55,627 bases of DNA, filler included, from Sphacelaria rigidula (GCA_964200075.2; 6 parts of 6 records of this genome joined end to end with filler, not necessarily neighbours in it); one strand, 5' to 3'; positions 7,382-46,545 are shown, counted from the first letter of the whole stretch. Notes: generated by a model from the sequence alone, not told the origin. Numbers and translations are program-made.

Positions 7382-7711
7382 AACAGACAATTCTAAAAAA
7401 TGAGATTGTACGATGAAACGAGGGTCACGCCCGTATTAGGGTTTTCCCCACAATTGCGGTGATGGCGCCAGACGACTTTTTTATCAGGGTAATGCCCCTC
7501 GATCGCGTAGATACTTCTTCAACGCGTTTTATCGACTCTGTGAGCTCACAGCGCTGACCAAAACGCGTTGAAGAAGTATCTACGCGATCGAGGGGCATGA
7601 GGCCGACAAAAGGGTCATTGGGCACCATCGCTAAAAGTGTGGGGAAATCCCTGTTCCGGCCTTGAACCTCATTTCATCATACAACCTCATTATTTGATAG
7701 AATTGTCTGTT
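7382..7711. mobile_element. 330-bp foldback MITE, AACAGAC...GTCTGTT ends, 4-bp TSD AATT
   Basis: TIR AACAGACAATTCTA; internal perfect 38-bp inverted repeat 7492-7529 / 7561-7598; removal restores integrase QIKCNNSVNAA (QMNHNDSVHAA in the other copy). Confidence 0.9.
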
Positions 7712-8404
7712 AATTCAGTCAATGCCGCCACGGAATGGGCACCCAATGATGTTCATATTGTTCGTACGCCCAGGTTGCCACTGACGGTGTTCGACCGGAA
7801 ACCTACGGGCGACCATCACAGTTTGGATCGAAATATTACGGAGAACCATATTTCTGTTCGTAATTGTCTTGGTTTTGCACATGAGGTGGTACGAGAGCAG
7901 AAAAAAATCAACGACTCGAAAGTAGCCAGGGCAAACACTGTCTCCGACGATGCGATAAATAGCCGCCTGATATGGAAAGTAGGTCAATGTGCATGGGTGT
8001 TCAACGATGTGAAAACCGTCACTCAAGGCGCTAGCTCCGATACGTCTTCGCTGGATAAGGTGTTGAAGTCGAGACTATCCTCGAACTGGACTGGCCCCTG
8101 AAACTCGTGGCAGTTGGGCCCTGTAATACCGCACCTGGCAATAGTCCAGTAAGCGAGAAACGTTCTACGGTTCGGACGAATCAGAGTTCATACGGGTTGG
8201 CTCCTAATGAATGTTCGAGTGCAGATCATGCACCAATGAGTTATCCGGTAGAAATCATAAATGGTGAAGTTGTATATTCAAGGTCATACCGCACGAATCA
8301 TGGATCGGAAATATGAACACTTCAGGTTGTGTAAAACCAATCAGTATCGAAAAACATGCACAAATCATCGTCCATATACAAATCATTGGTAGAAAACACA
8401 TACT

Positions 8405-9030
8405 CGTGATCCATCCCCGATGAACGAAAGGGTGGGCCACATGTATGTATGAGTCATCCCGCATGAAAACGAGGGAGAAAATATGTACCCATGATTCATT
8501 CCGGATGAACGCAAGGGTAGGAGACCTGAACCAATGATTCATCCCGCATGAACGCAAGGGTGGGTGACATGTACACATGATTCACCCTGCATAAAATAAA
8601 GGAGATACATGTGTACCCATGATTCATGCCACATGAAGGCAAGGAGGGAAACATGTATCCATGATTCGAGTCATCCTACGATAGGGGAGGGGGGGGGGGA
8701 GGGGGTGTTCGATTGCACGAGAATAAAAGGCTCAAAAGTGTGTCAGACGACCTGCCACACTCGCGGTGCGCTTGAATTTAAATCAAAACGGTGTCAACCG
8801 GTATGAATGACCGATATATATATATATATCAATGAGAAGCTCGTTCGAGCAACCATTGCTCCTACCGACGACGATTTGACGTGGAATTTTCGTGCAAGAA
8901 GTGGCCCAAAATACCACCCCCCCCTATCGTAGGAGGATTCATTCATGGATTCATGATGAAAAGGGGAGAAAACGTACCTTCGATTCATGCCCGAGGACGG
9001 GAAGGTGAGAACTATGTACACATGATTTAT
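8405..9030. repeat. Degenerate ~42-bp minisatellite, about 8-9 units, interrupted by MITEs
   Basis: Recurring CATGATTCATCCCGCATGAACGCAAGGGTGGG...ATGTAC-like unit. Confidence 0.8.
8668..8940 (+). mobile_element. 273-bp MITE with GAGTCATCCTACGATAG TIR and 4-bp TSD ATTC (Sola2-like end signature)
   Basis: ATTC|GAGTCATCCTACGATAGGGG...CCCCTATCGTAGGAGGATTC|ATTC. GRG ends with a 4-bp TSD are described for Sola2; the superfamily assignment is inference. Confidence 0.85.
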
Positions 9031-9188
9031 AACAGCCTGGATCCGTTTTTGAGGTTTAACATTTAAGTGAGGTTGAAGTCGCCATCGAAGTTTCCTTTGT
9101 TTCGTCCAATGGGCTCGGGATTCGCGAGCGGGTTCGACCTTGTAACCCTAACCCAGAAGTGTCTGTACGGCAGCCCAAGCATGATGAG
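9031..9188 (+). mobile_element. End of an AACAGCC-type TIR element, truncated by the contig end
   Basis: Starts AACAGCCTGGATCCGTTTTTGAGGTT, the same TIR as 23596; whole stretch is the reverse complement of ~30829-30987. Confidence 0.8.
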
Positions 9189-9288
9189 NNNNNNNNNNNN
9201 NNNNNNNNNNNNNNNNNNNNNNNNNNNNNNNNTTAATTAATTAANNNNNNNNNNNNNNNNNNNNNNNNNNNNNNNNNNNNNNNNNNNN
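9189..9288. other. Artificial contig linker N44-TTAATTAATTAA-N44
   Basis: Exactly 100 bp, core with stops in all six frames, recurs every 9288 bp. Confidence 0.99.
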
Positions 9289-9420
9289 AAGTGCTGATTC
9301 TTGTTTTGTGAATCCTTGTGAATCGGCATCATTTTGACTTGAAAATAACTGAAAATGATGCCGGTTTACCAAAACAAAAATCAGCGCCTCCCTGGGGGTC
9401 TAGTTCCGAAAGGGTAAATT
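9289..9420. repeat. Palindromic interspersed repeat fragment (related copies near 13750-13860 and 14305-14350)
   Basis: GTGCTGATT...GGCATCATTTT [loop] AAAATGATGCC...AATCAGCGC; shares GTGCTGATT..TGTTTT.GTGAATCGGCATCATTTT with 13817-13852, whose upstream ATGACTTTTAGTCGAACCTGAGTTT recurs near 14308. Confidence 0.65.
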
Positions 9421-10084
9421 AGTTCAGTTATCTCCAAGCCTCTGGAGTTGCAAGTACGGTTTTCCGAAACTCTCTGAGACACCCCTCATAACTGACTTCG
9501 GGGGTTTCCGGGCCTGTTTCGGGATCTCCCCACTGGCTGTTCTGCCCGCCCCTTCCAAGTATACCGCCCCCCCCCCCCCCCCCCCCCCCCCCCGAGCGTT
9601 ACTAGGCTCTATCGTAGTAACAAAACCGGGGCGTTGGGTATTGCACGGTATGCACCTAGCGGTAGTTTCCTGTATTACGCACGCTATAATAATATTCTCC
9701 GAAATGCGCCCGACAGTCATACATTTTTTCCCTCCCCGGTTTCCAATCATTACATCCCGCATTCAGTCTAGTACAGATTCTTACCCGTCATTTCTTAATT
9801 CTCTCAAAGAAACGAGACGGAGATCCTTAACCGTGAAATTCTTCACATCTGTCGCGCTCTGTGTTTCGTTCGATCGTCTGTGGTAGTGCATGAGCCGTAG
9901 TATACGGCCTCGACCCCACTGTCTTCCCCTTTGTAGTACGTGAGCCACGGGCGCTATATGCGGCAGATGACCGCGGGATACAAACTTAACCTCAACCCAC
10001 ATCATATCCAAGGTCACCGCGATCCTTTCAGATAACACCCCCTGTATTTCTGTAAGATCCTTGGCGAACTCCTCCACCATCACA

Positions 10085-10340
10085 GAGTCATCCTACGACA
10101 GTCGGATGACGGGGTGTTTGGTTGCACGAAAATAGAGTTTCATAGGTGCGTTAGACGATCTTCCGCACTCGATGTGCGCTTGAATTCAGTCTCAAACGGT
10201 GCCAAGCAGTACGAATAAGCGTTATTCATCCATGGCAACCTCGCTCAAACAAGCATCATTGCTGCTTTCAACACCAAATTGACTTGGAACTTCGTGCGAG
10301 AAGTGGTCCAAAACACCCCCCCCCTATCGTAAGATGACTC
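10085..10340 (+). mobile_element. Second complete copy of the GAG...CTC MITE
   Basis: GAGTCATCCTACGACAG...CTATCGTAAGATGACTC; internal sequence collinear with 8668-8940; TSD degenerate (CACA/CGTA). Confidence 0.85.
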
Positions 10341-13300
10341 CGTAGATCCGCCTTGAATCGCCGATAAGTCACTAATTTCGCGTCCTACCACCTGGAAAAC
10401 AACGAGCAGGACGTGGACATCGGCGGAAAACCCAACGGCGCTTACGTGGGAAAGCTACCTACCCTGATAACGCCACAAGGACAAAACAGGGCGGCCGTCA
10501 TGATATCAGTTTTTGCGCCGAAATTTGATCTGTCTACATCGAGGGGGAGGCGCCATGGCAACGCAGACCTTCCTCGGCGAGGGTGAGTTCCAGCGCCAAC
10601 AGTTGTATCTGGTTGCTACGCACATTTATCGTCACGACGGTATGTTGTCAATTGTTTCCATCTATTTCGCAGGTTGTTCATTTTTTATTCGCGCGCTGAA
10701 CTCCTCCCCTTACCGGGGGACGACTCAAAGGTCACAAGGGCTCAACCCGTCTCTCCCCGGCATACGCCTTGAATTGTGATATCGCGGACTAGGTAAGCAC
10801 CCCAGCACGCCGTAGAATCATACAAGATATTCTCAGTCATGTACTTCGGCAACTCACGCTGCCATGCCTTCCACAGCGATACACATGCACCACGGAGACA
10901 GAGCCTAACGCAACGGGAGTCTAACCCCTGATCTGTTCACACTATAGGGTACAAAGGGACAAAGGCATCACATGGCCGAGGCGGTGTCGTTGTGCGTCGA
11001 TAATAATATGAGTCTTTGGAAAGCGAAACCCGCGTTCTACACTCACGGTCTAAGAACTCGGAGCCAGTCTTGATCAGGATTCCACGATGATTGAACGTCC
11101 ACAGTTAGTTTCTCACGGTGGAAGCCGGAGGAGGTGTCGCGCATCACTAATGCGCCGTTTCAAAGTGTCGGCGAGATGACGGGATACAAACAAACATCCC
11201 TCATCGGGTGTCTCAGACCTCATCACAGGAGCAACGCGGAACGGCCCTCGCCCCATCCCGATGACAGCAACGTGGTTCACGCGTACTCAGATGGGGTCAC
11301 CATCATGAGCCGGTCACAACGGGGGATTTTCTGAAAATGGTCTGAACAAAAACAATGAGTCAACTCAGAAGCAGTATTTTCCCATTAAACCCGAGTTCAC
11401 ATTAACTATTTCCGGGGATTTTTACTTTCCCGTTCCCCCAAAGGGTATCAATCGAGGAAAATTTCTTGGCGTATCAAGCGCCCCTTTCTTCACCCCGACG
11501 TATGTGCTTCCTCACTTACATACTCTTTGGGGGAGTGGGGGGGGGGGGGTGGATAAAGCCACGGAAGTAGTTTCTGGAAGGCCGGCACTGATTGAGGTGG
11601 TCCTTATAAACGTCGATTGTCACGATTTCAAATCAACAGAGGAAGCACTGCGTTTGAGTTGAACCACATTATTTTATTCACGTTTTTTTTTCCAATACGC
11701 CGTTTCACGGAAGAAAAGCCAGTGATGTTGGAATACGGCGGCGGATTCACGAAAATAATGGTGCCCGTCACGGCATCAGATGAAAGTTGGCGTCTATAGC
11801 TATCATTAGATGCAGATTTATCGGAGTTGGACCCTACGCAGAATACAGCAGAGGGCGGGAAAACAGGGTGTTCGGATACATACGCGAAGCCGCAGAAACG
11901 ACAAATAATCGGGACCAACCAGTGGACGCCAACCACAGGTGGAAAGTTCGAATCCCTCGACTGGAAGCGCGGATACTCTCGAGGGTGCCATTGGTGCCCC
12001 CGCGGTAATAGACATGCCCACCGGGGAAGAAACCTTCGTCACGAGGATATATTACATGGCTTTTATAAAGGACAAACCGTCCACCCACAGCGGCGGTCGA
12101 GAGATACGGACTGGCCACCTGTGACGGCAACAAGAACCGGTTTCTTGGGGGTAAGGTTCATATCCAAGGGCGTCGCGTCCACCAACCGGGTGGCCAACAC
12201 TGACACCAAATATCGGGCGCCCTTTTCATTTACAACACCCCGACTGACGCCTGCACCCCCACCTGTTCCCCGGCATGGGCCGGCCATCAGGACAAAAATA
12301 AGGCTCGCCACACACAATCTGTCACCGACTGGTACCGAGATAGCCCCCTTCCAAAACCAGCCCAAAACCGCCACCGGAGACAATACCCGCACAGCGCGTG
12401 ATGTTTGGCTTCAGGGCCAATGAAGCGCCTTAGATGGGCGACATGGGCGAAGACGAACCCAAGCGTTGATATTCCACCCTGCACGGATTTTTTCATTTCG
12501 AGATACGTGTAAAGTTTGACTCCGAAAACCATCCACTTTTTGTGGGGGGGCCACCTCGCCAAAAAAACAAATCTGCATCTAATTTTGCCCCAGACATGGA
12601 GGTGATTTATGAACTGTGCCCTCATCGAGGCTCGTGGAGAGGAGCAGAGCCTGACTATGGATCTGAGAGTTGACAACATCGAGTTATTCATTATTCATGA
12701 AATTTTGACACTCACTATAGATGATTACGCCGCCGTACACATGTCATAGTCTCGATTCACACATGACTCCCGACTTTTCCGTAATCCAACAGAGGCCACG
12801 GAGAAGCTGGCAAAACTGAAGACCTCTCTCACCGCAGACGGGGCGATACTAGCGGCTACTGTATTCGACTTCTTCTCCTTCAAGGAAGCCAGACTGAAAG
12901 GTCGCCATGCTCACCTCCACGAAGCCACATCCAGGGTGAGGACGTATTTCACTTGTTCTACCGGTGATGTATATACACAAAAACATAGTAGTCCTTCATC
13001 GAAATCAAGGGAATCGCTTCCTAGTGGTAATTGAGCCCGAAATATTGCCTGACAATAGTCATTTATAAACTGTCTGACCTCAACTTTCCACTCGCTTGAA
13101 ACAAATTTGGCAGCGTTGTCGACGTTAATCGCGGTTTGCGTAAGATGGAGAGACGAAAAACAATTGAGAATGAAAGCGGTCAGGTTGTGGATGAATCGGT
13201 TCAGTTCCGACAGGCCCATCCACGAGGCCAGGAATGCCTCCTCTAATTACTCGACACTACTGAAACTCTGAGATCCCTCAGCAGGGTATGGAGGTGAAGC

Positions 13301-14923
13301 TGTAAAAATACGCCCACGATGCGGGGGGGAACCTGAAAGCGCAGGACACTTTATCATTCGGCACATGATATATTAAAGTCTCAGTGTGGCAGTACGACAC
13401 ATCATGACAAAGTCAGTACTGCGAGAGCAGTGAACGAACACTGCGCGAGCGGAGTTGGGTTGTACAGCAGTCTTACATCACACTGCGAGTACAGCGACAA
13501 CAGACTAGGAGAGTACAGCAACGTTCGTCATGATGATACAGCAGTGCAGTGCAGTTCAAAATACAACCATCTCCGCAGAGATACGCTGCCAAAACCCATT
13601 GTCCTTTTGTAAAAACCCCGTGCGAAGCTGTTCGAGCAGCTGACACGGATGTGTCCGCCCTAAGCTGCCGTGAGACCGGCTTCCGCCGCGTTCGCCAAAA
13701 TATCCAACTCTTCGTGCTCTCATAGTACGTCGAGCGAACCTGGGTTTTAACCCTAACCCGATGACTTTTAGTCGAACCTGAGTTTGTTAACCGTTGGGGA
13801 ACTGTACCCCCAGGGAGTGCTGATTTTTGTTTTTGTGAATCGGCATCATTTTCAGCCATTGTAACGGTTCTGACTCTAACTGTGTAACCCCGGCGAGGAC
13901 AACGGTTCTGGACGGCCATGTCATGTCACTCCACCTGTCAATCTATTGTGGCATTTACATAGTTCGAAGTACGTATCCAGGGCCCACGAACATGAGATGG
14001 CAGAATTCAACCATGTGGCCAACTCTTGGTCCCGCAGTGAACATAAGGTGAATGAGAACCAAGATAGCATACAGTGCAGGTCAACGATCCACGACTCACA
14101 GATGAGAGTAACGTGCCCATGGTACAGAGCCCATGAATTCAGAAGTTTCCACCTCTATGAAGTCTGAAATCCTGCACAAACCCCAGGTGACCAACAGGTG
14201 AGGGGCGGTCACCTGGAACGACTAGCGCATGGGACGCATGCAAATGCCCTGCACACCTGAGTTTATTAAGCAGAAGTTGTCTGTATACGGCTAGTCGTCT
14301 TATCCCATGACTTTTAGTCGAACCTGAGTTTATTTGTCCTAACCGTGGGAGGTTTGGCAGAGGTGATCCACCAAGGCCACCGGAGAACACGATATACGTG
14401 ATGTGCTGTGCCGAGTCTGCACATTGCCGCGACTGAATGAAAAAAGAACCGTGAAGCGTTTCCTCGTCATGGACCATGTATATATACAACACATAACCTC
14501 ACATGTCAGAACGGTACCTCGCTTGGTTCTCGTTTCCCCGATCTGCCTGCAGATTTGGAGAAAGCGAGATGGCATAGCGGAATAGAAAGAGTATGTCACG
14601 ACACCCGCCTTGACATACGGTTCCTAAAATAAGGAACCACTGCCCCAATCAATCCTATAAGACGATCATCACGAGCCAATGCGCTGACACATATGAGACC
14701 GTCAACAAACACGGAATTCACACATTATTAGTGAGGCCACACGTTCGTGACATTACGAACTCCTACAATCAGATTCCTGCTCACACGCCCTCCAAATACA
14801 CACTATATATATACAACATATATATATATATACTTGTAATCCTCACACATGTAACAAACAAGTATTGACTTCGTCATGTATATGCCATCGCGCTCAATCG
14901 TACGTGACGCATGAGGTATACAG

Positions 14924-15308
14924 AAGCCGGGCCTGTATGCACTGGTCGATCGAGCAGCGTCGTTCGTTCGACAAGTGTATGTCGACCACCACAATCCCAC
15001 ACCACATGCTGATGAGGTGCTAGGGTCTGGCTGGCGAGGCGCCATGTACCCCGCGGGCGATGATGTGACCGACGAGGAAGAGAAAGCGGTGAGGAACATG
15101 CAGGTTAGGGTTAACGAACACGTGACCGAGCACCTACTATCTGGTCACTTAGCTCATTTCAAGGGGTCAGCATTCTCCACGCTCGTGTACGCATGGGCTA
15201 TGAAAAGGGACGCGCCCATCATCGATGCTATGATGCGACGCCTCCTGGACGAGGATCAAGACAATGTCCCAACGCCACAACAAGCAACAACGAAATGAAA
15301 AGGAAAGG
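14924..15308 (+). pseudogene. Putative exon of an unknown multi-exon gene, with an in-frame TGA near its end
   Basis: TACAG| acceptor, then KPGLYALVDRAASFVRQVYVDHHNP...ATTK* and a possible AAG|GTGCG donor just after the stop; protein-like composition; no recognised domain. Confidence 0.35.
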
Positions 15309-16038
15309 TGCGGAACATAGTAATAAAATAATACATCGGTGAGCCACGAAATGGACACCAGATTTTGATAAGACACGATATAGCCGAATCGGCCGCCTGC
15401 AATCACAGAAGACACACACATATATATATATATATGCTACCTACCTCCTCAATCCCCATATCCTGCTTCCCTTTGTGGACGACCTTCGAAAAACTACTTT
15501 CCATCGTCATGCCACGACGGTGATGCACACGCAATGAGACAGGATATAAAAATGTATCATAGCAATTCACGTGATGAAATAGACATACCGCCATGTAAAA
15601 CCTGATGCATACCACACACGTCAACTAGGATGTTAGCCCGGACAGTTTCGTGTACAGTCTGGCGAAAATACCCCTGGCCCGTTGGAATACAAAGGTAGTC
15701 GTACGCTCCCCGATACATAACCAGGCAATCGTTTTTGAGTGGGACCAAGAGTTTTTAATATTGGGAACCTCAGGGGATAGTATGGCAAAAACACCGTAGC
15801 CTCACTGGAAAGATAATGTTCTCACCCGTACCTCTTGTGTGTAGACAATACACGTGATACTCCATCAGGCGAAATCCGTCAGGGACCAAATTATCGACTT
15901 TCATACGGGAACCGAAATCAATCTCAAACACGGTAAGTGCTAAATCAGAATCGTCCCAATGTCGGCTAGTTACACGACCTACACATATTACCCACAGCTT
16001 TCGGTGTATGCGGATGTGATGGGGGGTGCCGAGGGACC

Positions 16039-17697
16039 TTGGACTCCACCACCCTATACATGGGAATAATCCATTCGTCACAATATGCCGTTGACACGCG
16101 TACCCCTGACGCCCCCGCGACCTCCTTTGTGCACTATCTCTTGACGATCCGGCTATTCCCTATCCACAACGTGAAGGCCAAGAAAGGCCGGATTAAACGC
16201 AAGAGGGACACGAAACGAAGTTCTGCTTGCATAGCACCGTGTCTTGCACAGGTGTTCAGCTTGTCCGCAAAGACTCAGTGCAAACCGGAGCTCACGGAAA
16301 AAATTCGACATATTGGAGCCGTCAACAGCGTCAGAATTTTTGCGCTTCAACTCGCAAGGGAAGACATTATTGTCCTTCTGGCCACGTCCCTGGCGAAGAG
16401 GAAACACTGCGCACCGCTTCAGTCGAAAGAAGAACGGAAGGAGATCCCAGGAGTTCTTTCTGGGGTGGATGGTCTCGTTAGCGAGAAGCACGCGGAGCAT
16501 TTCATGCGCGAAAATGGGAAAGCCATTCTAGAGATGGAACAATACGCTGTCGCCTCCTTCCGCAGGCTAACTCAACATTTGTCGAAGCAGGACAAAGCGT
16601 TACTCACGTCCATCAACAAACAGGCTATGAAGCCTACCGCCGGGGCAGCCGAGAAGGAAAGGCTTCGGAAAACAAGGGAAGGCGACGGCCGCGATTACCG
16701 CAACTCCAGCAAGTCGTGTTTTGAGCCCGGATACAAACTTCTACCCTACATCTCCATCACGGCCGTGGAAATTGATTTAGACGCAAAGGCATGGTGCGAC
16801 TGGGCGAACCATGTAGATAGCCCTCTAAAGGAGAAGAATGAATCATGCGGCAAGCAGAGAAGGACGCTGGCGACAGAACTCTCGATGCTGGTGGTCGACA
16901 GATTTGTTGCGGGAATGACGAGTGATGACGATGAAGAGAGGAAGGCACTGGAGAAGTTCAAGGAAATATTATCCGCACTGGATGTGAACGGTTTCTTATT
17001 CCAGGTCATGAAACAAAACACCGACGCCTTGTCCTGCGACGGCAAGCCGTTCTTCACAGGGGCCAGACTGGCAGCCGTGAAGGCCAGACTGGCAGCCGTT
17101 GAGGCACTTGCGTCACAGGCGCGTTGACCAATACGATCAACATCCGCGGAAGACGAGACTGGATCAACGATGGGAGGGGACGAGACACTCCCGGCCCAGG
17201 ACGACGCAGAACAGGTGGGCTTGCAACAAGACGTCCAGCGTACAGATACGGGGGCGTCAGACACGTACACTAGAAAGGACAACGTCTGGCTGAGACGGAC
17301 GGACCGCGTGGGCACCACGGCTACCATTCAAGACCCCATATCCATCCACGTCGCCCTGGATGCATTGAATTCGCTAGGACTACTAGGGGCGAACGGGCAA
17401 CCTGTCCTGGGACGGAAGCCGATCACGGTTCCATTATCAATACGCGACGACGACGACGACCCCGAAGAACTTCCCGTCGGCGCTGTAGGCAACCCTGCGC
17501 AACTGGCGGCAGACAACAGTAACACACACTCGGGTGGCGACGGCAACCAGCGGGCTGATCTTGTGTCGAAGGTCGTAACGAGCAGGTGCGCACGGTCACA
17601 ATGCCGACACGGTAGGGGTGCACCTTCTACACCAAAAGAAGAGTTCGTAACTTTAGGAAGTTGCACATGCTGCGATATTATGCAAAATGATGCCTGA
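16039..17697 (+). pseudogene. Long orphan reading frame (362 aa + 175 aa, same frame, one TGA between); probable large exon, product unknown
   Basis: ORFs 16039-17127 and 17170-17697 share a frame with only the TGA at 17125-17127 interrupting; possible donor CAG|GTGCG at 17585/17586; 21-bp in-frame tandem duplication (ARLAAVK/ARLAAVE). Confidence 0.5.
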
Positions 17698-18476: not shown

Positions 18477-18576
18477 NNNNNNNNNNNNNNNNNNNNNNNN
18501 NNNNNNNNNNNNNNNNNNNNTTAATTAATTAANNNNNNNNNNNNNNNNNNNNNNNNNNNNNNNNNNNNNNNNNNNN
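18477..18576. other. Artificial contig linker
   Basis: N44-TTAATTAATTAA-N44. Confidence 0.99.
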
Positions 18577-18639
18577 AGATAACGGGCTCCTAACAATTCT
18601 AATCTCAGAAATTATTTCTGTACCCCTACCGTAGCATCA

Positions 18640-18644
18640 CTCCC

Positions 18645-19581: not shown

Positions 19582-19804
19582 TGTAATGCGTGAGAGGACC
19601 GCGTGCTTAGAGAACCGAATCGGAACTTGAACATCCCTATGGTTAGGGTTAGGGTTGGGGTTGGCGTTAGGGTTAGGGTTGAGGTTCGGGTCAGGGGTGT
19701 GGTCCCTGCAGGACTGGCCCGATTTATTTTTGAAAAACGTTGATCCTGAGGTGTTTCGAACTACGATGCGGTCCTCTAAGCACGCGATCTTCTCACGCAT
19801 TGCA
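19582..19804 (+). mobile_element. 223-bp TGT-ended MITE (Ginger-like ends) with 5-bp TSD CCAGG and internal telomere-like (TTAGGG)n
   Basis: CCAGG|TGTAATGCGTGAGAGGACCGCGTGCTTAGAG...CTCTAAGCACGCGATCTTCTCACGCATTGCA|CCAGG; TTAGGG-like tract at 19641-19697. Confidence 0.85.
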
Positions 19805-23595: not shown

Positions 23596-24016
23596 AACAG
23601 CCTGGATCCGTTTGTGAGGTTCAAGATTCGGGTGAGGTTCAACTCGGAAACAGTGCTTTCCCTGACGTGAAGTCATGATCAATGAATTTCATATGGACGA
23701 CCTCATGCCCCCCGACCTCCTTGAAACTATTTTCGGGGGTTGCCCGTCTTCCGTGCCTCCAAAGCGTATGTGCCAAAGCACCTTTTTGCCTCGATATCGG
23801 GGCGAAAAAGGGGACGTGTTTAGCCCGAACTTGGTGGTTTCGCATATATGCTTTGGGGGCACGGAAGACGGGCAACCCGAATATAGTTTTAGGAGGTCGG
23901 GGGGCATGAGGTCGTTCATATAAATTTCGTTGGTCATGAGTTGAGGTCAGGAAAAGCACTGTTTTCGAGTTGAACATCACCCAATTATTGAACCTCAAAA
24001 ACGGATCGAGGCTGTT
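23596..24016. mobile_element. 421-bp near-complete palindrome (foldback MITE), AACAGCC...GGCTGTT ends, 4-bp TSD CGTC
   Basis: CGTC|AACAGCCTGGATCCGTTT...AAACGGATCGAGGCTGTT|CGTC; the arms pair over ~190 bp, which is why mirror ORFs 23675-23923(+) and 23689-23937(-) give similar peptides. Confidence 0.92.
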
Positions 24017-27764: not shown

Positions 27765-27864
27765 NNNNNNNNNNNNNNNNNNNNNNNNNNNNNNNNNNNN
27801 NNNNNNNNTTAATTAATTAANNNNNNNNNNNNNNNNNNNNNNNNNNNNNNNNNNNNNNNNNNNN
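27765..27864. other. Artificial contig linker
   Basis: N44-TTAATTAATTAA-N44. Confidence 0.99.
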
Positions 27865-30828
27865 GCACTCAAACCACCAAGCGGGAAGCGCCGTGGTGTG
27901 CTCGGCGAGTCGCATGAAAGGTGAGCTGCATCCTGCTAGGATTGTTCGGCACGAAGCGTACTGATTATCTTGCCTTTGGATGACAGCCTACGATGAATCG
28001 CTTCATTTTCTGGTATCGCCACTTCCAGAGACAGCTACGGCTTATACACTGCCTCATGGGTGCGTCACCATTTTTTTCGGCGAGCGGCTACCGTGGAAAG
28101 TCTTACAATGGGGAGGAACGTTTTGCACGGGAAATGGACGGAGGTCAAAATTGGTCGGAGTATCTGTCTAGGGGTAGAGATATGGAGCAAATAAAGTTCC
28201 ATACTGAACTCGATATATACATTCAATATATTACGAGCAGAGGTGCTAAATTAACCAAATATGGATTTCGCCGCTCAGTTTTGAGAGTTGTGATTTGAAA
28301 TTTTGAATGGAGTATCGCAAGGGCAACGTAAAACACTTTCTTTGGGGATTTGAGATTTTCTCGTGAGTTTTAGGGACGTTTTTTTTAAACGAAAATGACT
28401 TTTATTTGTTGCCCTTCACTCAGTTTCTCATCTCTCTTTCCAGAGTTGTGCTTTGAAATTAAGTTTGAAGAATCGCAAGAAGAGCATACTAAGAACGAAA
28501 GCACCGGCACCTCGTGTGTTTTTTCGTAAGGTCAAGACGTTCTCGTGAAAATGTGGCCCTCGCTACAGTTAAATGTCCTGAGCCCACGACACAAAAAACG
28601 TATCCCACAGGTTTTCTTTTATTCGTCACCATGCTCTTGCTATTCTCCACACAAGATTTTAGAGTACAAATATCAAAACTGAGCTGATGAATGGTCCACA
28701 ACATACAGCTCCGTTTGTAGGCTGGCCCAGCTTGTGCATTCGAAATTCTCGCCTCAGTTTTGAGACTTGCGAATTATTATTTGGTATGGGGAATCGGTGG
28801 GGCAAAATATTTGTTTTCGGCGCCTTGTTGAGTTTTGCATGAGTTAGCGACATCTTTAGTGCAAAACTGAGTCTTGTTTTGAGGTCTCAACTCACGAAGA
28901 AAGAAAGTATCGACGCGTCGAAATTACTTTTATTATCATGCCCTACATATTTTCCATACCAAATTTTCAATTGCAACCCTCAAAATTGAGGGGAGAATCC
29001 GACTACAACCTACAAATAATCTGGTTCTAGGCTGGCCCAGGTCGTATTCTACTGTGTCCAGTTTTTCAAGGTAATCACGTACGCGGGAATGCTTTAGAAT
29101 TCCGTTAACTGTTCATGGTGAACAAGTGGCATGAAATTGGACCGACTTTGTCAGTTGACCGAGTTTTTCTGAGACATTGTTTTAACTTTGCCAGATGCTG
29201 TCGGATTGACAGACGAGATACGGCATACATATTGTTCCCCACGAGCGAGTGTAGGGGCCTATTGTAAACCTTTGTTCGGGATGCATCGGCTGTGAATATA
29301 AATAAAGCCTGTCATTCAGGTAGATCGCAGAAGTTAGAAATGGTCCCCCAAATCAAGAGATATGCGAAAAAGGTGGATGATGCTGAATAGTTTTCACGAA
29401 TACGCTTTTGTGAAACGTGATTCAACCCAAATTCGCCAGCGCATAGGCTGTTGATGAATCTGCAACTAAATCGCTGCTTCAACGGAGGAACTCAATTAAT
29501 ACGTTGAAGCAGACAGGAGCAACACATTTTCATCTCAACGGCCTTTTATGGCAACCTCGAAAACAGTCGATATTTTTCGACTGCATTTTTTCTTCGTGCC
29601 GCGTGTAATGTACAAGCTGCAGAAGGAGGTATCTATGATATGTGCACAACTGGTTGGGTGCACTCATCTATTCCTGCATACCCTCTACAGGGTGCCGGCG
29701 CGGTCTCCAACTAGTTCCAAAACTATCATCGCGACATCACTTGGATATTTCTGACTTGCGGCCGATTCTTGCCAATCTCTCGAAAACAGTGGACATCCTC
29801 GCTTCGAGTCCGGTCACGTACTCCCGACACGCGAATTAACTCCAGTTTCAGACGTCTGATCAGGTCTGGTAGCTTGATTTCATAAAATCTTCGTATCCAC
29901 ACTTAATCTCCGAAATACGGTTCCATTCCTCCGCCTACTGGTAGCTATTGACAACCTCAGGGTTAGGATTAGACCCCACGGGAAGTCCTGAAATAACGGA
30001 CGGTTTTCTTGGAAAGCAGTCGCTCACTGTAACGGGTAAAAAGCGTTCAAGCAAGGAAATTTCGATTTTGAACAGGGAAATATGTACCACGAGATAGCCC
30101 TGAATAATACCATTCTACATGTTTCATTCCGAGCGATGTTGCCCAAATACCCCCACAGTTGTCACAAATCCTATCTGAGAGAGAGGGTGTCAGCACTTTC
30201 CGTCGCTGGATCAGACCCCGTTCGGGCCCGTCAGGAGGGATATTCACACTGCAGCTGATGCGGGCTCTAATTTAAGAAAAAGCGGCTCGGATTTTGCAAG
30301 CGCGTTGCACTAGTAGTATCCTTCGACAGCCCCACCGCCAAACCGGTTCTCAGCACAACCACGGCGGAAGTGGCCATACAAGGCGTGATGGATAGTTTAG
30401 ACTGGATGAAGCGCCTCGCGTGGGCGCTACTGGCGAAGCAACCCCAAGCGTGGGACTAACCCTTACCCCCGTTGTGTGTGCCAGCAGCTTTTTTGTGGGG
30501 CATCCATTTTATCCAACTGGCGACTGTACTGTTGTAGTGATGCTGTCCTCTGGTGTGGTGGTATATCTCAGCAGACTGCTGGATGATGCTGCGTTTCAAA
30601 GATCGCTGGTGTCTGTCGGCGCATTGGATCGTTTCGCTGACGGCGATCGTCGCCGGCGCAACAGTATGAAGTCTCTCTCAGATACTCAACAAGAGGCGCT
30701 CGAAAACTCGATGACTAGTTCAAAGTATGTTTTTAGCATGCTTTGTTACTTGTTCCGTAGCGCTTAGACGCAGGTCCTGCTCAAAAGATGCCGCACAATC
30801 AATGACGGCGGTTCTTCTGTTGGGCCGC

Positions 30829-30987
30829 TCATCATGCTTGCGCTGCCGTGCAGAAACTTCTGGGTTAGGGTTACATGGTCGGAACCGGTTGGGAATCCCG
30901 AGCCTTTTGGACAAAACAAAAAATGAAATGTCGATGGTCAGTTAAACCTCACCCAAATATTGAACCTCAAAAACGAATCCAGGTTGT
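30829..30987 (-). mobile_element. One end of an AACAGCC-type TIR element
   Basis: Ends ...GAACCTCAAAAACGAATCCAGGTTGTT; reverse complement of 9031-9188; partner end not identified. Confidence 0.7.
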
Positions 30988-31402
30988 TCTTAGGAGGATG
31001 CAGCTCACCCTTCATGCGACTCGCCGAACACAACATTCAGGCCTGACAGTATTCACAACATGCAGCTCACCCTTCACGGGATCGGCCGGGCATATGGCGG
31101 CACTTGGCGCTTGGTGATTGCGAGCCTGGTCCGGCGACAACCCGGTGTGCTCCGTCCCGGCTTCGTACGGATACGAGGTCAATGTTCTCATGACTACGGC
31201 ATGCAAGATCATGAAACATCCCCACCTCTCTCGAACAGTTGGGCTTGAGTAAAAAGTTGGAGTCTCACCGGAATTCTCTGCCCCCGAGAAACTCCCTGTA
31301 CAGCAAGTATTGTAGACAGATGAACCAAAGTGTCCGCAAAATATACACGCAACAATGAGGGCAAAAAGTATATCCATCTATATAGGTGGATCTTATTTTC
31401 AC

Positions 31403-31794
31403 CGGTCTTGCTCTTCACGTCAACGTTGACGTAGTCTGTTACATCCGTCAACGTTCAGCATCCGTCCCACAAGCCCCGCATGAACACAGCAACACATGGA
31501 AAACACTCACAGTCTCTAGCTAACGTTCAAGCCATCGCACGGAGCAAAAGGACCCGTAACGGATGAGATACATGCTCATGGCAGAGTGAGCATTCTTGTG
31601 GCATGCCACCATGTATCATGCATACGTCTCATCCGTTGCGGGTCCGTTTGCTCTGTGCGATGGCTCGAACGTTAGCTAGAGACTGTGTGAGTGTTTTCCA
31701 TGTGTTGCTGTGTCCATGCGGGGCTTGTGGGACGGATGCTGAACGTTGACGGATGTAACAGGTTACGTCACCGTTGACGTAAATAGCAAGATCC
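31403..31794. mobile_element. 392-bp long-TIR hairpin element with 9-11-bp TSD (Mutator/MULE-like MITE)
   Basis: ~170-bp inverted arms around a ~45-nt loop; direct repeat TATTTTCAC(C) at 31394-31402 and 31795-31803; long TIRs with a 9-11-bp TSD are the MULE signature. Confidence 0.85.
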
Positions 31795-32269: not shown

Positions 32270-32731
32270 AACACTACATTCGTGAGATTCAGAGGGTAGT
32301 TTCAGATTCAGAGTAGAGACCCGAAACAATGGACTTTCCCGTCGATTTTGACATCACCACAGTTCAAGAAGTAATGCGCTCAGCTGGTGAAGCGGTGGCT
32401 TCAATGAAAGCTGTCACCTGCACGATCAATTTCACACATTACTTGATCGCAACGACGTAGTCAGTCCATTGCAACAAAAGATCCTCTCTTTCAGGAAAAA
32501 TCGAGTAGTGCCTGAAACAGTTTCAGTTCCGACATGCCCCCCCCCAGGCGTACAAATGCTTTGTGTGGTATCTCACCAACCAGAGCGCCGAATTCCTCGA
32601 ATGGGGTACTGTACGGTAGCTGCATGCACAGCACGTGTGCTTGAGCAAAAAAACAAAGGTTGCCTGTAAGGAACGCTAGAGCATCCACACTGAATCTGAA
32701 ACTACCCTCTGAATCTCACGAACATGGTGTT
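32270..32731 (+). mobile_element. 462-bp MITE copy A, AACAC...GTGTT ends, 4-bp TSD ATAG
   Basis: ~44-bp TIR AACACTACATTCGTGAGATTCAGAGGGTAGTTTCAGATTCAG; removing it plus one ATAG restores host SINE spacing. Confidence 0.92.
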
Positions 32732-32870: not shown

Positions 32871-33683
32871 CAGGGTTGTGTTCTGCAGGGTACGGGTATT
32901 TCTGTAGGATGTGGGAGTTTCAACAGAACTCACAGAAATATCGGGTACCGGTATGAAAGTCTCGAAGAAATTACACAATTGTCATACTGTATGGGAGGCT
33001 TTCAGAAACCCGAACCGGCAGTTGGGTTTTCCTTCAAGGGCATCCTCGCGCTCCGGGTACGGGCATAGATTATCTTAAGAATTCGCGGAACTGTTGGGTA
33101 AGGGTATGGGAGGCGTACAAAGCTCACAGAAACTGTTGGACAGGGTATGGAGGCTGCACAGAAAATCATACCCAACAACGTGTTCGAGAGAAAAAGAGTA
33201 GAGCGCTGATTGAGAGCGGCTTTGATAATCCGCTGTAATTTAGCCAATTTTTCATTCCGTGCGCTCTCCTTTACCTCCATCACTGGCGTGTGCTTCCATC
33301 TGCACGTCGATATTCTACTCGGGGATATCAAGGGCCTGAGTGGCAAGCTACTACGGGAAGCATTTTAGGTCTCGGGGAGGGGCATTTCGGAACTGAAACG
33401 ATTCATTCATTAATTGACCGCTTTTCATCCTCAATCGTATCCTCCACGCTCAATCTCACGAAAACACTGTTACCCGCAACCGGGTATCTTATCAGGAGCA
33501 TATCCGTGCCCCCGGTAATGGTACGGGAGGCTTACAGAACTCACGAACTATTGGGTAAGGGTGTGAACATCTTGCACAGTTTACAGAACCGTCGGGCACC
33601 GGTATGAGAGTGTCGGGTACGGTTAATATCCGGAAAAATACCTAGGGTAGACGGAAAAACGTATCCTACAGGACACAACCTTG
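32871..33683 (+). mobile_element. hAT-like non-autonomous element (CAGGGTTGTG TIR) with ACAGAA/GGGTACGG subterminal repeats
   Basis: Left CAGGGTTGTGTTCTGCAGGGTACG vs right-end reverse complement CAAGGTTGTGTCCTGTAGGATACG; 8-bp flanks only 5/8 identical. Confidence 0.65.
33174..33471. mobile_element. 298-bp MITE, AACA...TGTT ends, 4-bp TSD ACCC, nested in the hAT-like element
   Basis: ACCC|AACAACGTGTTCGAGAGA...CTCAATCTCACGAAAACACTGTT|ACCC; partial second copy at 46441-46545. Confidence 0.85.
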
Positions 33684-34678: not shown

Positions 34679-35140
34679 AACACTATATTCGTGAGATTCA
34701 GAGGGTAGTTTCAGATTCAGAGTGGATGCTCTAGCGTTCCTTACAGGCAACCTTTGTTTTTTTGCTCAAGCACACGTGCTGTGCATGCAGCTACCGTACA
34801 GTACCCCATTCGAGGAATTCGGCGCTCTGGTTGGTGAGATACCACACAAAGCATTTGTACGCCTGGGGGGGGGCATGTCGGAACTGAAACTGTTTCAGGC
34901 ACTACTCGATTTTTCCTGAAAGAGAGGATCTTTTGTTGCAATGGACTGACTACGTCGTTGCGATCAAGTAATGTGTGAAATCGATCGTGCAGGTGACAGC
35001 TTTCATTGAAGCCACCGCTTCACCAGCTGAGCGCATTACTTCTTGAACTGTGGTGATGTCAAAATTGACGGGAAAGTCCATTGTTTCGGGTCTCTACTCT
35101 GAATCTGAAACTACCCTCTGAATCTCACGAATGTAGTGTT
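34679..35140 (-). mobile_element. 462-bp MITE copy B, inverted relative to copy A, in the tyrosinase intron
   Basis: Near-identical reverse complement of 32270-32731 (about 5 differences by eye); flanks AGAA/GGAA. Confidence 0.92.
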
Positions 35141-37052: not shown

Positions 37053-37152
37053 NNNNNNNNNNNNNNNNNNNNNNNNNNNNNNNNNNNNNNNNNNNNTTAA
37101 TTAATTAANNNNNNNNNNNNNNNNNNNNNNNNNNNNNNNNNNNNNNNNNNNN
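37053..37152. other. Artificial contig linker
   Basis: N44-TTAATTAATTAA-N44. Confidence 0.99.
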
Positions 37153-38144: not shown

Positions 38145-38182
<38 letters not shown>

Positions 38183-38345
38183 GCCGTCGTGACATGGGCA
38201 TTCACTAGAGGTGGGAACCGTTGAAGAAAGAACGGGTCGATTGTAACCGGTTCTTGGAAACCCTAGTATACGCTTACCGGTTCCGGTTCTTTTTTGTTTC
38301 CCTTTCTTCCCGGTAAAACCGGTTCGCCGGTTCGCCGGTTTAACC
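38020..38345. repeat. G-run-anchored tandem duplication (with G33 run) followed by a cluster of (A)ACCGGTT motifs
   Basis: GGGGTGCCGTCGTG...GTTGAAGAAAGAA...TAACCGGTTCTTGG twice; repeated CCGGTT motifs to ~38340. Confidence 0.7.
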
Positions 38346-40055
38346 TGGAAAGGATGCGTTATTCCGGCGGTTAAACCTTGCAATGATTTTGAGTGGATAT
38401 GGTGCCGTAGTGGAGGGTTTCTTGATTCGTACCTAAGCCAGGGACGTTTGATTCGACTCTCACCAGCATGATCTCCCACAAAGAGGAGTTAACTACTGGT
38501 GCTTGAGTGACAATGTGACACAGAGTAACGTAAGACTGTACGTTTTTTACGCAAAGCAAGTGGGCGTGGATTTCTGTTTACTCTGAAGGTCTGCTTTAGT
38601 TTCCTCACGGAGAGTGCCATCATGATGTTTAGCGTACACAGGAAGTCCGGTCTGGCCCTCTGTGTTTTTTCTCGATAAAATCTGATGTGATGTCTTGTCG
38701 CCTATCGACCTCGTACGATTTTTACGTCATCGTTCATCCTGTGGGCCAAAATTTCCCAGGGAGAAGGCGCGATCGTGCGGTTGGCGTGGTTTGCAGCGTC
38801 TAGGGTGGGTTTTCCGTTGTACCCTGGTTTCGTAGTTTTTAGACACCGAGGCGTTGCATGTTTTCCATGCAAAGTTGACTGAGAGCATTACCCCTGCTCC
38901 TCCCTCCTGTATTGGGGCATTGGGTTTCAGGGGCGGGCGGGGTGTGGGGCGCAGAATTTTCCCTTTTGGCACCGGATGTTGGCTTGCACGCTACAGCTCA
39001 CCCCGGAGATGTGTCGCACGGACAAGAGTAGTCTTTCGTTTTAATGTCTCATTGATTTGTTCATGCCAGTTTCAAGTTTCGAATAGCAGCTGTTGAAGCA
39101 ATCACCAACGCCATTTCCTATCAAGCATTGAAATTGTTGTCACCAGCCACTGTGCTGTTCGTTGGACAGATGTTGCACAGGTGCGGAGGTGTGAGATTGA
39201 ACCTTGCCGTCACCGGCAATGTCAATCACCCACCACATACGAAACACACAACGACGCCTATTTACCTGCGCTTCAATGATTTGAAGGCGTTTTCCCTTGC
39301 TCATCACGTTGAATCGATTATCAGTGAACCGACTGAGAAAAACGATATAACCCCTCTTTATTATTCCGATAATAACGCCTCCTATCCGGTGACCGTTTTG
39401 TTTTTGGTTGCCGGTGCCCACCTCTAGCAATGACACCCCTACTTGAAACAGCTGGGAGTATTTCCGCCGTGGCTGCAGCCTGCGCCAGGCTTGCCAGCGG
39501 CGGCCGCTGGTTGCCGCCGTCGCACGCTGATGCCAGTGCCAAAAAAGGCGGTGACCTTGCTGCGCGACTGAGGCAATGACAATCTTTCTGTGGTGGATAT
39601 CGAGGCTCTGTTCTCCTCGGATAGACACAAATTTAGCGCATGGAATGGAACTAAAGTGCCGGGATATGTGCACGGTGCACAATATGCCTCTTGCTGAAAT
39701 GCATGCTGACAGTGCCCTTGCACCGAACAGGTGATGCAGTCAGTGCACGCTGCACAGACAGGCAGGGATGACAGTACAACGCAAGTGTACAAACCAGAGC
39801 AGGGTGTAGAAACATGGGACAGACACAACACTCCCACAGAGATGAAGCCACCGTACACTGCACGCGACAGTCGGCAGTGTGCAGGGTGAATCAGTCGACG
39901 GCTAAAGCACAAGCACAAATCTTGACGCCGCGAGCGGCATCGACGTGAAAACACACGCCAGGCGTCCAGTGTGTTCACACTAACTATAGTAAAACAATAC
40001 AAACACAAAGCATGAAAACCAACCATGTGCAGTAGGAAGCGATCATTTCGTGACT

Positions 40056-40266
40056 AAACAAAATTCGACTCAACTATCGACGAGGGAAAGGGATGGCTGA
40101 AGCCTTCTCTCGATAAATTAAGGCAAGCACCACAGAAGGAAGATGGAGAATTGAAAAACAAAAATAAGAAACTCCAGTGTGACCTTCCTCCGGTGTGATC
40201 CCGGCTTCTGCGCCCACATATACGGAAAAATGAACAAAGCGCCCAGGATAAATCAGATGAAGACAC
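40056..40266 (+). mobile_element. SINE body fragment
   Basis: Diverged reverse complement of ~41085-41305. Confidence 0.7.
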
Positions 40267-41069
40267 GCAAATCGAGAGTCTGCCCATCCTGATTACAAGG
40301 ACGACATAAAAACTCCATTTTTTTCCAAAAACATGAAGAAGAAAAATGACAACAAGCGGTGCCGTATTGGCACGGGTGCAACGAACACCTCAGGCCAGGG
40401 ACAACGCGCAAAGGGACAACAGGTGACCCCGATATATCCTTGTTGTGATTCTTTCATTTTCCGCGCCTCGAATCTTGGATCTGTGACGCCATGGTTTTTG
40501 CGTTTGCGTTCAAGTTTCTCGTGGTCATTCCTTCCTGGGGTTTAATGCCGCCTTCAAACCCCGACCGAAGCGTACCTCCTCGAACCTCCTATTTTCTGTG
40601 TGGAACCACTTGCAAAGCTGCCCGTTATTTTGTGTGCCCGTAAATACTGCAATGCGCGACAGAGCACGATTTTCCCCCACGCGATGCCGTTTTGAGCCGA
40701 GGGTAAAATACTCTCTTCAAAAAGAGAAAAAAATGAAATTTGATTGAACTTTGCTCGAAGCGCCCAGAGAATCTCCACGGTCGTTCGCAGCTCCTCTGGC
40801 GTAGAAGCGTGTTGGTGCAAGTTGGGGTGCACTACATGCCGTCTTTGGTGGGCGGTTCAACATCGACGTTGTCGATGTCACGTGCATACAATGGGATTAG
40901 GAGCTTGTCGAAGCAGGCATTTCATCTAGAGCGGGGGCGGGAGGGGGGCGGGTTTACAGGGAAAAACAACAATAAAAAACGATACGAAAGTAATACAAGA
41001 TAAAATAAACCCCGGTCAACTCTGCACCGTGCCCGACTGTGCAGTACTTTTATCCGGTGTGTACACAGG

Positions 41070-41435
41070 TGTGTGTTGTGTGTTGTCGTCCCATTTATCC
41101 TGGGCACCAGTCTACACCTTTCGGTATATGTGGATGAATCAGCCGGGATCACACAGGAGCAAAGTCAACACAGGAGATTTTTCTTTTTTATTTGTTTTTA
41201 ATGCCCCACCTTCCTTCGGCGGTGCTTGCCTTTTTATTTTTTATGGCGAGAGGGGTTCAGCAGTCCCCTTCCCTCGTCGACCGTTAAGTCGTATTTTGTT
41301 TACCCATGATGCAGTCGCTCTCCACTGTTGAGCATGGTGTGAGAAAAAATTCCAGATCGCTCCGGGAATCGAACCCCCCCTACTCATCCGCCAGAAGGTC
41401 ACGAGATTACCAACTGAGCCACCGGGGCGACCGGG
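41070..41435 (-). mobile_element. Near-full-length tRNA-derived SINE
   Basis: Minus-strand head GCCCCGGTGGCTCAGTTGGTA (A box) ... GGTTCGATTCCCG (B box), ~250-bp body and (ACAAC/AC)-rich tail; at least four copies in the window. Confidence 0.85.
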
Positions 41436-41561
41436 TAGTTTTTATGATACTACTATAATACTGTACTGTGGTTTCAACATGAAAATCCATGCACCAGGTG
41501 AAGTCTGCAAAACCTCACTCCGTCCACACAAGATCATCATGTGTACGTTCCAAGTGCTCAC

Positions 41562-42224
41562 CTGCAGCGTACCACCCGTGAATGAGGCAGGCTCGGACGA
41601 TCGCCCGGCGTAGGGCTCACTGCTCACGGCGTCTACAAGTAAATCTAGGGGGGCTCGCGGGTTCAGAGCCAAGGTTCGCAGGAGACCACCCCCCTTGCTA
41701 TCTCCAGCAGGTGCTTCTGTTGATCCTGCTGGATTATTTTTTAGATACTTTTTCTCGGCCTCTCGACGCGCGCGGTTGTACAGCTCAAGCGTACACGGAA
41801 CTGCAGTAGCACCCTGCGACTCCTTTGGTGCTGGTGACATTCGACCATCGTCTCCTTGGCATACTGTTGGCGCTTGAGTATGGACAAGGGGGTGCTGGTG
41901 TTCATTTATGACGGTGGTCGTCAGCTGGGCCGTTAGCAGTTGTATGGCAGTCGCCGTATCTCGACTCAGTTCTGCCTTTAGCTTGCCTTCCGGCAGCGCC
42001 GAGAGAGCCGCGAGAAATATGCTCTCCATGTCTCCCTTTTCGTGTCCTGACAAACGGGTCGCTAACCCGGCCACAAACTTTCGCACCAGCTTCTGGCCAC
42101 CGGCATTCTTGTCTCGAGGATCGTGCTTTTTGGATTTGGATTCCCGTTTGTCCATGTTGTCACCATCAGCTTCAGACGGGTACTTCTGTGCCTTTCTTTT
42201 CTTCGACGACTTTCTCGCAGGCAT
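41562..42224 (-). CDS. Orphan exon-like ORF with a basic NLS-like N-terminus; product unknown
   Basis: ATG MPARKSSKKRKAQK... open to GGTLQ, ending at a consensus CAG|GTGAG donor (intron starts at 41561); 221 codons. Confidence 0.5.
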
Positions 42225-45200: not shown

Positions 45201-46210
45201 GGGCTGCTCTTATCGTATATGTTACCGCGCTATCAAATCGCCACCGCGAGCTTCGGACCAGTCGGCGGCGCCAAGTTTGGACTGTGGGTGAGTCATTCTC
45301 CGGGCGCTGGTCTTAAGCCGTCGCTGATCGAGACCGAAAATTCATGCACCTCCCACAACCACTTTCTCGAATCTGATTCAACCCAGAGCGACCACCTCAA
45401 CCCTTGAGCGATCGCACGCAAACAGCCCTCCAGGAATGTACTTTTTTTGCTCATTGCGCGGAGTGCGAACCGATCACATCGGTATAGTAGATGGCATACC
45501 GACCGAGCATGAGCAACAAACCCCCCCCGCCAATCTATGACAACCAGCGTGCGCCTGTAGAAGCGTTCAAAAACTTGATGCAGCCGTCGTGTTCGCCCAT
45601 ACACTCGTGTGTGATTACTTGCTACCCGGTGACTAGCTCAGCACTGTTTTAAAGTAAATTACTTGATTTTAGTAAAACAGACGAACTTGAAATCTCCGAA
45701 CGCATCTGGGATCTCGTTGGAAGAGGCACGGGGCGGTCGGTCAAATTGCGACGAGAGAAAACAGGCACACCCGCCCGGGCAAGGGCTAGGCAAGCACGCG
45801 AAAACCGACTAACACAGCAATGTCTCTGTCATGTTAGTACATCCCCCTACCGGAGCAGCCGACGATGGGAGCGTGCGTAGCAGGTGGCGTAACGACCATC
45901 TAGGTTTGTGAGGTTACCAGAAACTACCCTTGGCGCATCAAGTATTTCCCGCTGTACTGTATGTAGTACAAACAAGTGGCGGATCCCTTGGTGAGCACAC
46001 GTGCCCATCGTTGAGAAGCGTGCTTTGGCTGCCCACTCCGATCATCCCGATGTATGTGGTCATGGCTAGCACGTTGCAGTAATGACAGGCAATGTGATCA
46101 CGGGCAAGGTGCTTGCTGTGAGATAAGTATCCCCAACACACCTCGCTCTTGCACTTGCATGGTGCCGGTCGCCACGTCTGGCTGTCACGGTGGTGAGTGA
46201 AGAGCTGCAC

Positions 46211-46340
46211 TGTGTTGTGTTGTGTGTGTTGACGTCCCATCAAATCTGGACGCCAGTCTACACCTTCCGGTATATGTTTGCGCACCAGCCAGGGTCACAC
46301 AGGAGGAAGGTCAACACAGGAGCTTTTTCTTTTTTATTTG
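46211..46340 (-). mobile_element. SINE 3' part truncated by the contig end
   Basis: TGTGTTG tail followed by CGTCCCAT...CCAGTCTACACCTTCCGGTATATGT...CACACAGGAGGAAGGTCAACACAGG. Confidence 0.8.
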
Positions 46341-46440
46341 NNNNNNNNNNNNNNNNNNNNNNNNNNNNNNNNNNNNNNNNNNNNTTAATTAATTAANNNN
46401 NNNNNNNNNNNNNNNNNNNNNNNNNNNNNNNNNNNNNNNN
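46341..46440. other. Artificial contig linker
   Basis: N44-TTAATTAATTAA-N44. Confidence 0.99.
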
Positions 46441-46545
46441 GGTAAAGGAAAGCACACGTGGAATTTTTTTTTGACTCACTTGAAGCGAATGATCAAATCC
46501 ACTCTCAATCGTATCATCTACTCTCAATCTCACGAAAAGACTGTT
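46441..46545 (-). mobile_element. Partial copy of the 33174-33471 AACA MITE
   Basis: Ends CTCAATCTCACGAAAAGACTGTT; reverse complement aligns to ~33174-33275. Confidence 0.75.

Follow-up and report, generated by a model that had tools for sequence, protein, structure and literature searches.

The Sola superfamily of DNA transposons is described, in the accessible part of PMC10741241, as having a 4-bp target-site duplication (TSD) and terminal inverted repeats (TIRs) of 11-1124 bp with very variable termini. In Ectocarpus, the superfamily is represented by Sola1-1_Ec32, which the available portion of PMC12477816 describes as a 21.5-kb element with AACCG-CGGTT ends and a 4-bp TSD, whose best match is a moss Sola1; it occurs in 1989 copies, 2 of which are intact, and carries a ParB-methyltransferase passenger gene. 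The Sola1 MITEs of Bombyx and Rhodnius, as far as the accessible text of PMC3845634 goes, are non-autonomous elements of 250-700 bp with GGACC ends, a strict AWWT/AWDT target and a 4-bp TSD that favours A in the first and T in the last position. Sola2 elements also have a 4-bp TSD and an aspartate-based catalytic core, with the motifs DFKEN, SDGAKHFKS or CDNARHFKS, and HGKS..D (PMC3627910, accessible portion).

Here we describe MITEs with AACA...TGTT ends in a stretch of 55,627 nucleotides, filler included, from Sphacelaria rigidula (GCA_964200075.2), hereafter the window. They are like Sola1-1_Ec32 in occurring in a brown alga, in their AAC...GTT ends and 4-bp TSD, in being associated with a long element of the spliced type, in the many short genomic fragments and in the nested fixed insertions, which are described for such giant elements (PMC12477816, accessible part). 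They differ from it in the fourth end base (A here, C in Sola1-1_Ec32) and in the bias of the TSD (A first and T last here, while that of Sola1-1_Ec32 ends in A). Ectocarpus has one Sola1 family, and its curated table, in the part of PMC12477816 that is available, has no Sola1 MITE family, whereas here we count no fewer than five families of transposase and six types of MITE end. The insect MITEs are similar in their non-autonomous structure, size and TSD, but the ends are AACA and the target is loose in Sphacelaria. The 4-bp TSD and the aspartate-based core are shared with Sola2, but the corresponding motifs here are QAD, DNCVGENKN and GHTH..ID. We propose that the elements are, in all likelihood, non-autonomous Sola1 DNA transposons on which spliced DDD transposases, encoded elsewhere in the genome, act in trans.

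The elements of the window and their genomic copies

The window consists of six contigs of about 9.19 kb each, joined by N44-TTAATTAATTAA-N44 spacers (9189-9288, 18477-18576, 27765-27864, 37053-37152 and 46341-46440); the source assembly comprises 244 Mb in 27,214 contigs. Since the spacers are artificial, nothing across them counts as real neighbourhood.

Five elements start with AACA and end with TGTT, and their flanks are as the initial annotation had given them. The family A MITE (7382..7711, 330 bp), which sits within a Gypsy-type remnant, has TIRs of about 160 bp (81% alike) and the TSD AATT. The family B MITE (23596..24016, 421 bp) has TIRs of about 190 bp (86% alike) and the TSD CGTC. 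Family C is represented by a 462-bp copy on the plus strand (32270..32731, TIRs of about 45 bp, TSD ATAG) and by a second, inverted copy on the minus strand (34679..35140, flanks AGAA/GGAA), and family D by a 298-bp element on the plus strand (33174..33471, imperfect TIRs, TSD ACCC). Only 5 of 462 positions separate the two C copies, whereas the next best C copy is 91% alike, and each of the two has its own TSD; this is consistent with gene conversion or a recent local transposition. Contig breaks explain why the ends at 9031 and 46545 are partial: the first is a family E end (9031..9188, plus strand) cut by the end of contig C9095, the second a D-like end of type F (46441..46545, minus strand) cut by a contig start. 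A third partial end had been placed at 30987; it belongs to a family E copy that lacks one end (29949..30988, minus strand), whose true terminus is 30988.

The A and B elements resemble hairpins, their TIRs measuring 160-190 bp, whereas the TIRs of C and D are short. Family E consists of foldback elements that reach 1.85 kb and have arms of about 830 bp; their interiors contain no transposase exons. The families had been taken to be distinct in sequence, which is only partly so: B and E are alike over the first ~44 bases, D and F over ~46 terminal bases, and C has an internal stretch in common with D. All end types have AACA at positions 1-4 and a heptamer at 20-26; a second heptamer lies at 38-44 in A, B and E and at 39-45 in C, D and F. 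The heptamer reads TGAGGTT in A, B and E, and TGAGAGT or TCAGAGK in C, D and F. The paired motifs of the initial annotation are real, with this corrected spacing, and together with true AACA ends and the 4-bp TSD they bear out its view that these are MITEs of one kind of transposon.

Its statement that the window holds no autonomous partner also stands. A Pfam scan of 22 of the 131 open reading frames returned only retrotransposon domains and one weak low-complexity match, and a tblastn search of the window with the transposase exons described below gave no match.

Several other features of the window were observed. Two decayed Gypsy-type remnants (~5374-8100 and 50325-54980) have Pfam matches to reverse transcriptase, RNase H and integrase zinc finger, and both contain a palindromic element of about 110 bp (7079-7190 and 54487-54596, 90% alike). 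A foldback element at ~31404-31794 has GG...CC ends and is flanked by an apparent 10-bp duplication, TATTTTCACC; it looks MuDR-like. The stretch 40030-41327 has CAGT...CACTG ends and inverted arms of 88 bp, with flanks other than TA. A decayed internal remnant at 13173-13258 is 74% like family D, an interstitial telomere-like GGTTAG array of about 9 copies lies at 19641-19696, and three plus-strand open frames (14915-17697), which encode 127, 385 and 189 aa, have no Pfam match.

Genome searches gave 698 first-look candidates for A, 1261 for B, 459 for C, 3924 for D and 503 for E, 40 being scored per search. For families A-D, 115 loci were fetched, giving 107 paired elements, 69 of which (including the five copies of the window) have exact AACA at both ends. 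Among these 69 elements, an exact 4-bp duplication is present in 30, compared to 9 duplications of 2 bp, 2 of 3 bp, 1 of 5 bp and none of 6-10 bp; over 2000 shuffles of the flanks, the number of perfect 4-bp duplications had a mean of 0.84 and a maximum of 5. When decayed ends are allowed, the TSD of the 106 elements with full flanks is exact in 48, has one mismatch in 30, two in 15 and at least three in 13. In families B, C and D, copies diverge from their own consensus by 5-7%.

A search for empty paralogous sites over 114 entries was successful for 9 distinct elements, and the overlap is 4 bases in 8 of them; in the remaining one, which lies within a T run, it is 3 or 5. The window itself provides such sites for the elements at 7382 (paralogue at 54188-54191) and 32270 (41153-41156 and 46299-46302), with an overlap of 4 each time, in agreement with the initial annotation. 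The idea that AA/TT is part of the target is ruled out: the empty sites keep no AA/TT, which therefore belongs to the element.

The 30 exact TSDs comprise 26 different tetramers. The target is a loose palindrome, C-x-A-C|A-N-N-T|G-T-x-G, with A in 51% of cases at TSD position 1 and an excess of C at -1, of A at -2 and of C at -4. AWWT is found in 8 of 78 targets (about 1 expected by composition), ANNT in 17, and A first or T last in 62. The preference points in the same direction as the AWWT/AWDT of Sola1 and is much weaker.

A nested insertion was seen on one contig (C4167, 7624-8345), where a D copy interrupts a B copy two bases in from its terminus, with CAGC duplicated (L101 and L066).

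Transposases encoded elsewhere in the genome

The Pfam family DUF7869 (PF25273) was chosen as search profile on the assumption that it covers Sola-like proteins. It gave 79 matches from 87 candidates in this genome, and none in 14 control genomes. The set considered here consists of 40 stretches from 39 contigs, plus small pieces of a few more. Within these 40 stretches we distinguish the families S1 (20 loci and one fragment), S2 (14 loci), S3 (2 loci and one diverged locus) and S4 (2 loci); a fifth type, S5, is seen in short pieces, so that the genome has at least five families. The longer, transposase-encoding elements that the initial annotation had recommended looking for thus exist, and in three families their right ends start with AACA.

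The exons encode the motifs QAD, QLDNCVGENKN and GHTH..ID, all three being kept in 19 of 40 loci, and match only DUF7869 in Pfam. The three aspartates align with those of full-length homologues (hhalign probability 99.6), which include proteins of Ectocarpus, moss, liverwort and marine animals; the nearest named proteins are CAN0101251.1 of S. rigidula itself and CAB1097926.1 of Ectocarpus, and a search for longer relatives of the latter gave 1 match. The first-aspartate motif is QADAAAQ here and HDKMDQ in the homologues, and the brown-algal proteins are without a long insertion that is present in the nearest non-algal homologues. Compared by eye with the published Sola1 HMM consensus (RNase_H_Sola1.hmm, accessible part of PMC5751038) over positions 82-107 of 124 only, the second-aspartate segment is identical at 13 of 26 positions, with no gaps.

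An AlphaFold model of the homologue P0023 (pLDDT 84.9) gave no Foldseek match at E<=0.001. On re-examination of this model, integrase and DDE transposase cores rank first, with middling Z values of 6.9-7.8, the top structures being retroviral intasomes, Mos1, Metnase and Sleeping Beauty (for the RSV intasome, Z 7.8, rmsd 3.6, 137 aligned). Separately, the predicted C-terminal domain of the model (m7349b39fe41b, residues 931-1043) appears to resemble BAH/SH3-like chromatin-reader folds (for EBS/SHL, Z 6.5, rmsd 3.6-3.9, 87 aligned) and is folded within the full model; the last exon of the loci L181, L192 and L214 is similar to it.

Regarding splicing, GT..AG joints at four predicted exon borders of S1 were looked for in contigs of sequencing runs. 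X1 and X2 contain all four joints, X4 contains one, and X5 has none; that X1, X2 and X4, which come from one study, are RNA is our guess, no run being on record as such. This suggests that the S1 transposase is spliced.

The right end of S2 lies about 3 kb past the domain and is common to 8 of the 14 loci, 7 of which start with AACAG, with unrelated flanks; of the other S2 loci, five extend beyond their contigs and one is fragmentary. The right end of S1, seen in 3 of 20 loci, starts with AACAGC. That of S4 is present in the 3 of 3 loci checked (AACACAGG in 2), has the heptamer TGGGGAT and has its own MITE. In all three the heptamers occupy positions 20 and 38, which is also the layout of A, B and E. 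Only right ends were recovered: among the loci examined, in which contigs break inside the elements, we found neither the left ends of S1 and S2 nor an autonomous copy with both ends and a TSD, and no S3 right end was found within the 1.7 kb examined.

The 73 exact S2 end sites include only two pairs located on the same contig. Both pairs are MITEs of 352-354 bp, terminated on either side by the exact S2 20-mer, and their TSDs are CCTT and AAAT. For one of the two an empty site exists, and identity between its arm and the end of the transposase locus L210 is 88%. A further sister MITE, in L176, carries an S2 end in which one of the first 11 bases is mismatched, and its similarity to the A element of the window is 79%. 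The ends of the sister MITEs of A are common to the S2 transposase family. The rule used in Repbase for non-autonomous elements is the same TSD length and ends that match those of a member over bases 1-11 within one mismatch. By this comparison the MITEs L219, L220 and L176, the sisters of A, have 0-1 mismatches to S2, while the A element of the window has 3, and B and C also fall outside with respect to the S1, S2 and S4 ends.

The B and E ends share AACAGC and both TGAGGTT boxes with S1, and the sequence between the boxes differs; no inward-facing pair was found among 85 exact S1 ends. In half of the 20 S1 loci, a family C element is found within S1, its outer end being mostly decayed, and a C TIR is the apparent left boundary in 1 of 20 S1 loci (L205). 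No exact B/E or D/F TIR was seen at the end of a transposase element. A close cognate transposase end is found for family A only; for B/E and C/D/F, the assignment follows from layout and TSD.

Other features were noted in these loci. In L019 (C10528), a C copy lies between exons of an S3 transposase, the last exon coming after it. In L183 and L186, TTAA followed by CCCTT, which resembles a piggyBac end, is found at the point where these two S2 copies stop sharing sequence, some 3.3 kb upstream of the domain.

Probable assignment to Sola1

The characters of the superfamily that we observe are the 4-bp TSD, the TIRs with variable termini and, in the partner, a DDD transposase with an RNase H-like core. 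The elements are very probably new non-autonomous Sola1 families and not a new transposon group. The strength of the assignment varies: family A belongs to Sola1 almost certainly, B and E very probably, and C, D and F probably.

Other superfamilies were considered. Sola3 and Kolobok are specific for TTAA, which is found in 0 of the 30 exact TSDs. Ginger elements end in TGT...ACA, while the ends are AACA here, and the partner exons match DUF7869 only and not the rve integrase domain; rve integrase and terminal sequence are the two characters by which Ginger was tested and rejected. The piggyBac target is likewise TTAA-specific (PMC12477816, accessible part), which excludes this group on the same count. 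As for Sola2, the two labelled Sola2 proteins in the accessible portion of PMC3627910 differ in motif at all three aspartates.

The initial annotation had set Sola1 aside on the basis of the AWWT rule, but the preference is present here in the loose form given above. It may then be asked whether the Sphacelaria elements form a distinct stramenopile subgroup of Sola, deserving its own name beside Sola1-3, given that their AAC ends differ from the GGACC ends of insect Sola1 (PMC3845634, accessible text), that their target is looser than AWWT, and that their transposase has QADAAAQ in place of HDKMDQ and misses the long insertion of its nearest non-algal homologues. We consider this improbable: the second-aspartate segment fits the Sola1 profile, Sola termini are very variable in general (PMC10741241, accessible part), homology to moss and animal proteins continues without a gap, and the Ectocarpus element, in the available part of PMC12477816, is already filed as Sola1. 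Still less credit can be given to a mixed scenario in which A and B/E are Sola1 while C, D and F are served by another, unseen transposase. The start AACA, the 4-bp TSD and the heptamer at 20 are shared by all families, S3 and S5 could be the partners, S4 shows that the heptamer varies among the Sola1 families of this genome, and the junction bias towards C described below is the same, with 5 cases each in C and D. These points outweigh, in our opinion, the position of the second heptamer (39, not 38), the low scores of the first 45 bases against the S1 and S2 ends (only 19-24), the fact that a cognate autonomous end was not found, and the presence of C inside S1 in half of the loci, like a fixed passenger.

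The new superfamily that the initial annotation had proposed, in the form of a possibly under-described group, is very hard to uphold: transposase-bearing elements with ends of the same kind encode a protein that matches the Sola1 profile, and the outcome that the initial annotation had named as refuting, an autonomous copy from a described family with such ends, is largely at hand, a brown-algal Sola1 with AACCG ends being curated already. What speaks for it is that AACA ends with such a layout are undescribed in the accessible text of the literature covered (including PMC3985635, PMC4455052, PMC5199201, PMC7466625 and bioRxiv 2021.09.26.461848), a weak argument as Repbase and the defining 2009 paper are outside this scope. 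The same literature, whose scope excludes Repbase, the paper of Bao et al. 2009 and the Ectocarpus FASTA, has no account of AACA-ended Sola1 MITEs or of a junction bias, and a search for "DUF7869" found no mention of it. The moss transposable element paper has no Sola passage, and no labelled Sola1 protein occurs in the searchable parts of the Majorek and Bombyx supplements. Assignment to Sola1 remains our preferred reading.

Proposed transposition in trans and the bias at the junctions

In the mechanism that we propose, transposases encoded by long (>7 kb) elements elsewhere in the genome would move the MITEs in trans. By analogy with DDE transposases in general, the enzyme would bind the two heptamers at ~20 and ~38 of each TIR, pair the ends, excise the element and insert it with a 4-nt stagger, the repair of which would give the TSD. 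The heptamer of each lineage (TGAGGTT, TGAGAGT/TCAGAGK or TGGGGAT) probably sets which transposase family moves which MITE.

Imperfect TSDs show a bias. The 13 elements with at least three TSD mismatches being left out, the mismatches in 93 elements (186 junctions) fall more often at the outer than at the inner positions (40 versus 20, p=0.013). Where the two TSD copies disagree, the one adjacent to the element has C in 24 cases and has lost C in 3 (p=5e-5), whereas interior mutation rates predict about 6 such changes; T>C is seen 19 times and C>T once, and this is so in all four families. The changes that can be polarised with an empty site all lie at the element-adjacent base (5 of 5, in 4 elements). 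In a second, partly overlapping set of 68 elements, the outer excess is not significant (p=0.10) but the bias towards C stays (17 versus 1).

Decay of CpG was rejected as the cause, since the observed/expected ratio of CpG is 1.05, CG>TG changes, at 3.4%, are similar to those in other contexts, and the next base is G in 6 of 13 cases, compared to 73 of 136 overall (p=0.58). Plain carry-over of flanking bases from random donors also fits poorly, for it would not favour C, and the changes are to C in 24 cases, to G in 9, to T in 4 and to A in 3. The explanation that we favour, which we regard as possible and rather doubtful, is that the non-transferred strand is cut one base outside the TIR, leaving a 1-base 5' overhang that would sometimes be ligated as the last base of the TSD, with C-flanked donors being favoured. 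Such an overhang would explain why C|AACA and TGTT|G arise at about one junction in eight in four families. Local mutation or a fill-in error may be the cause instead.

MITEs with AACA...TGTT ends and a 4-bp TSD, of which this brown alga has thousands of candidate copies, can be annotated as Sola1, and the AWWT rule is unfit for excluding Sola1 in algae. Sola1-type transposases form at least five families in the genome of S. rigidula, and in one or more of these they are apparently still spliced, while Ectocarpus has one curated family in the available part of its description. If the bias towards C at the junctions is a footprint of cleavage, it offers a simple in vitro test of the Sola mechanism. 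We know of no study of the biochemistry or mechanism of Sola transposons; if true, the overhang reading, together with the fixed 20/38 layout of the heptamers, would give a first handle on how Sola ends are recognised and cleaved.
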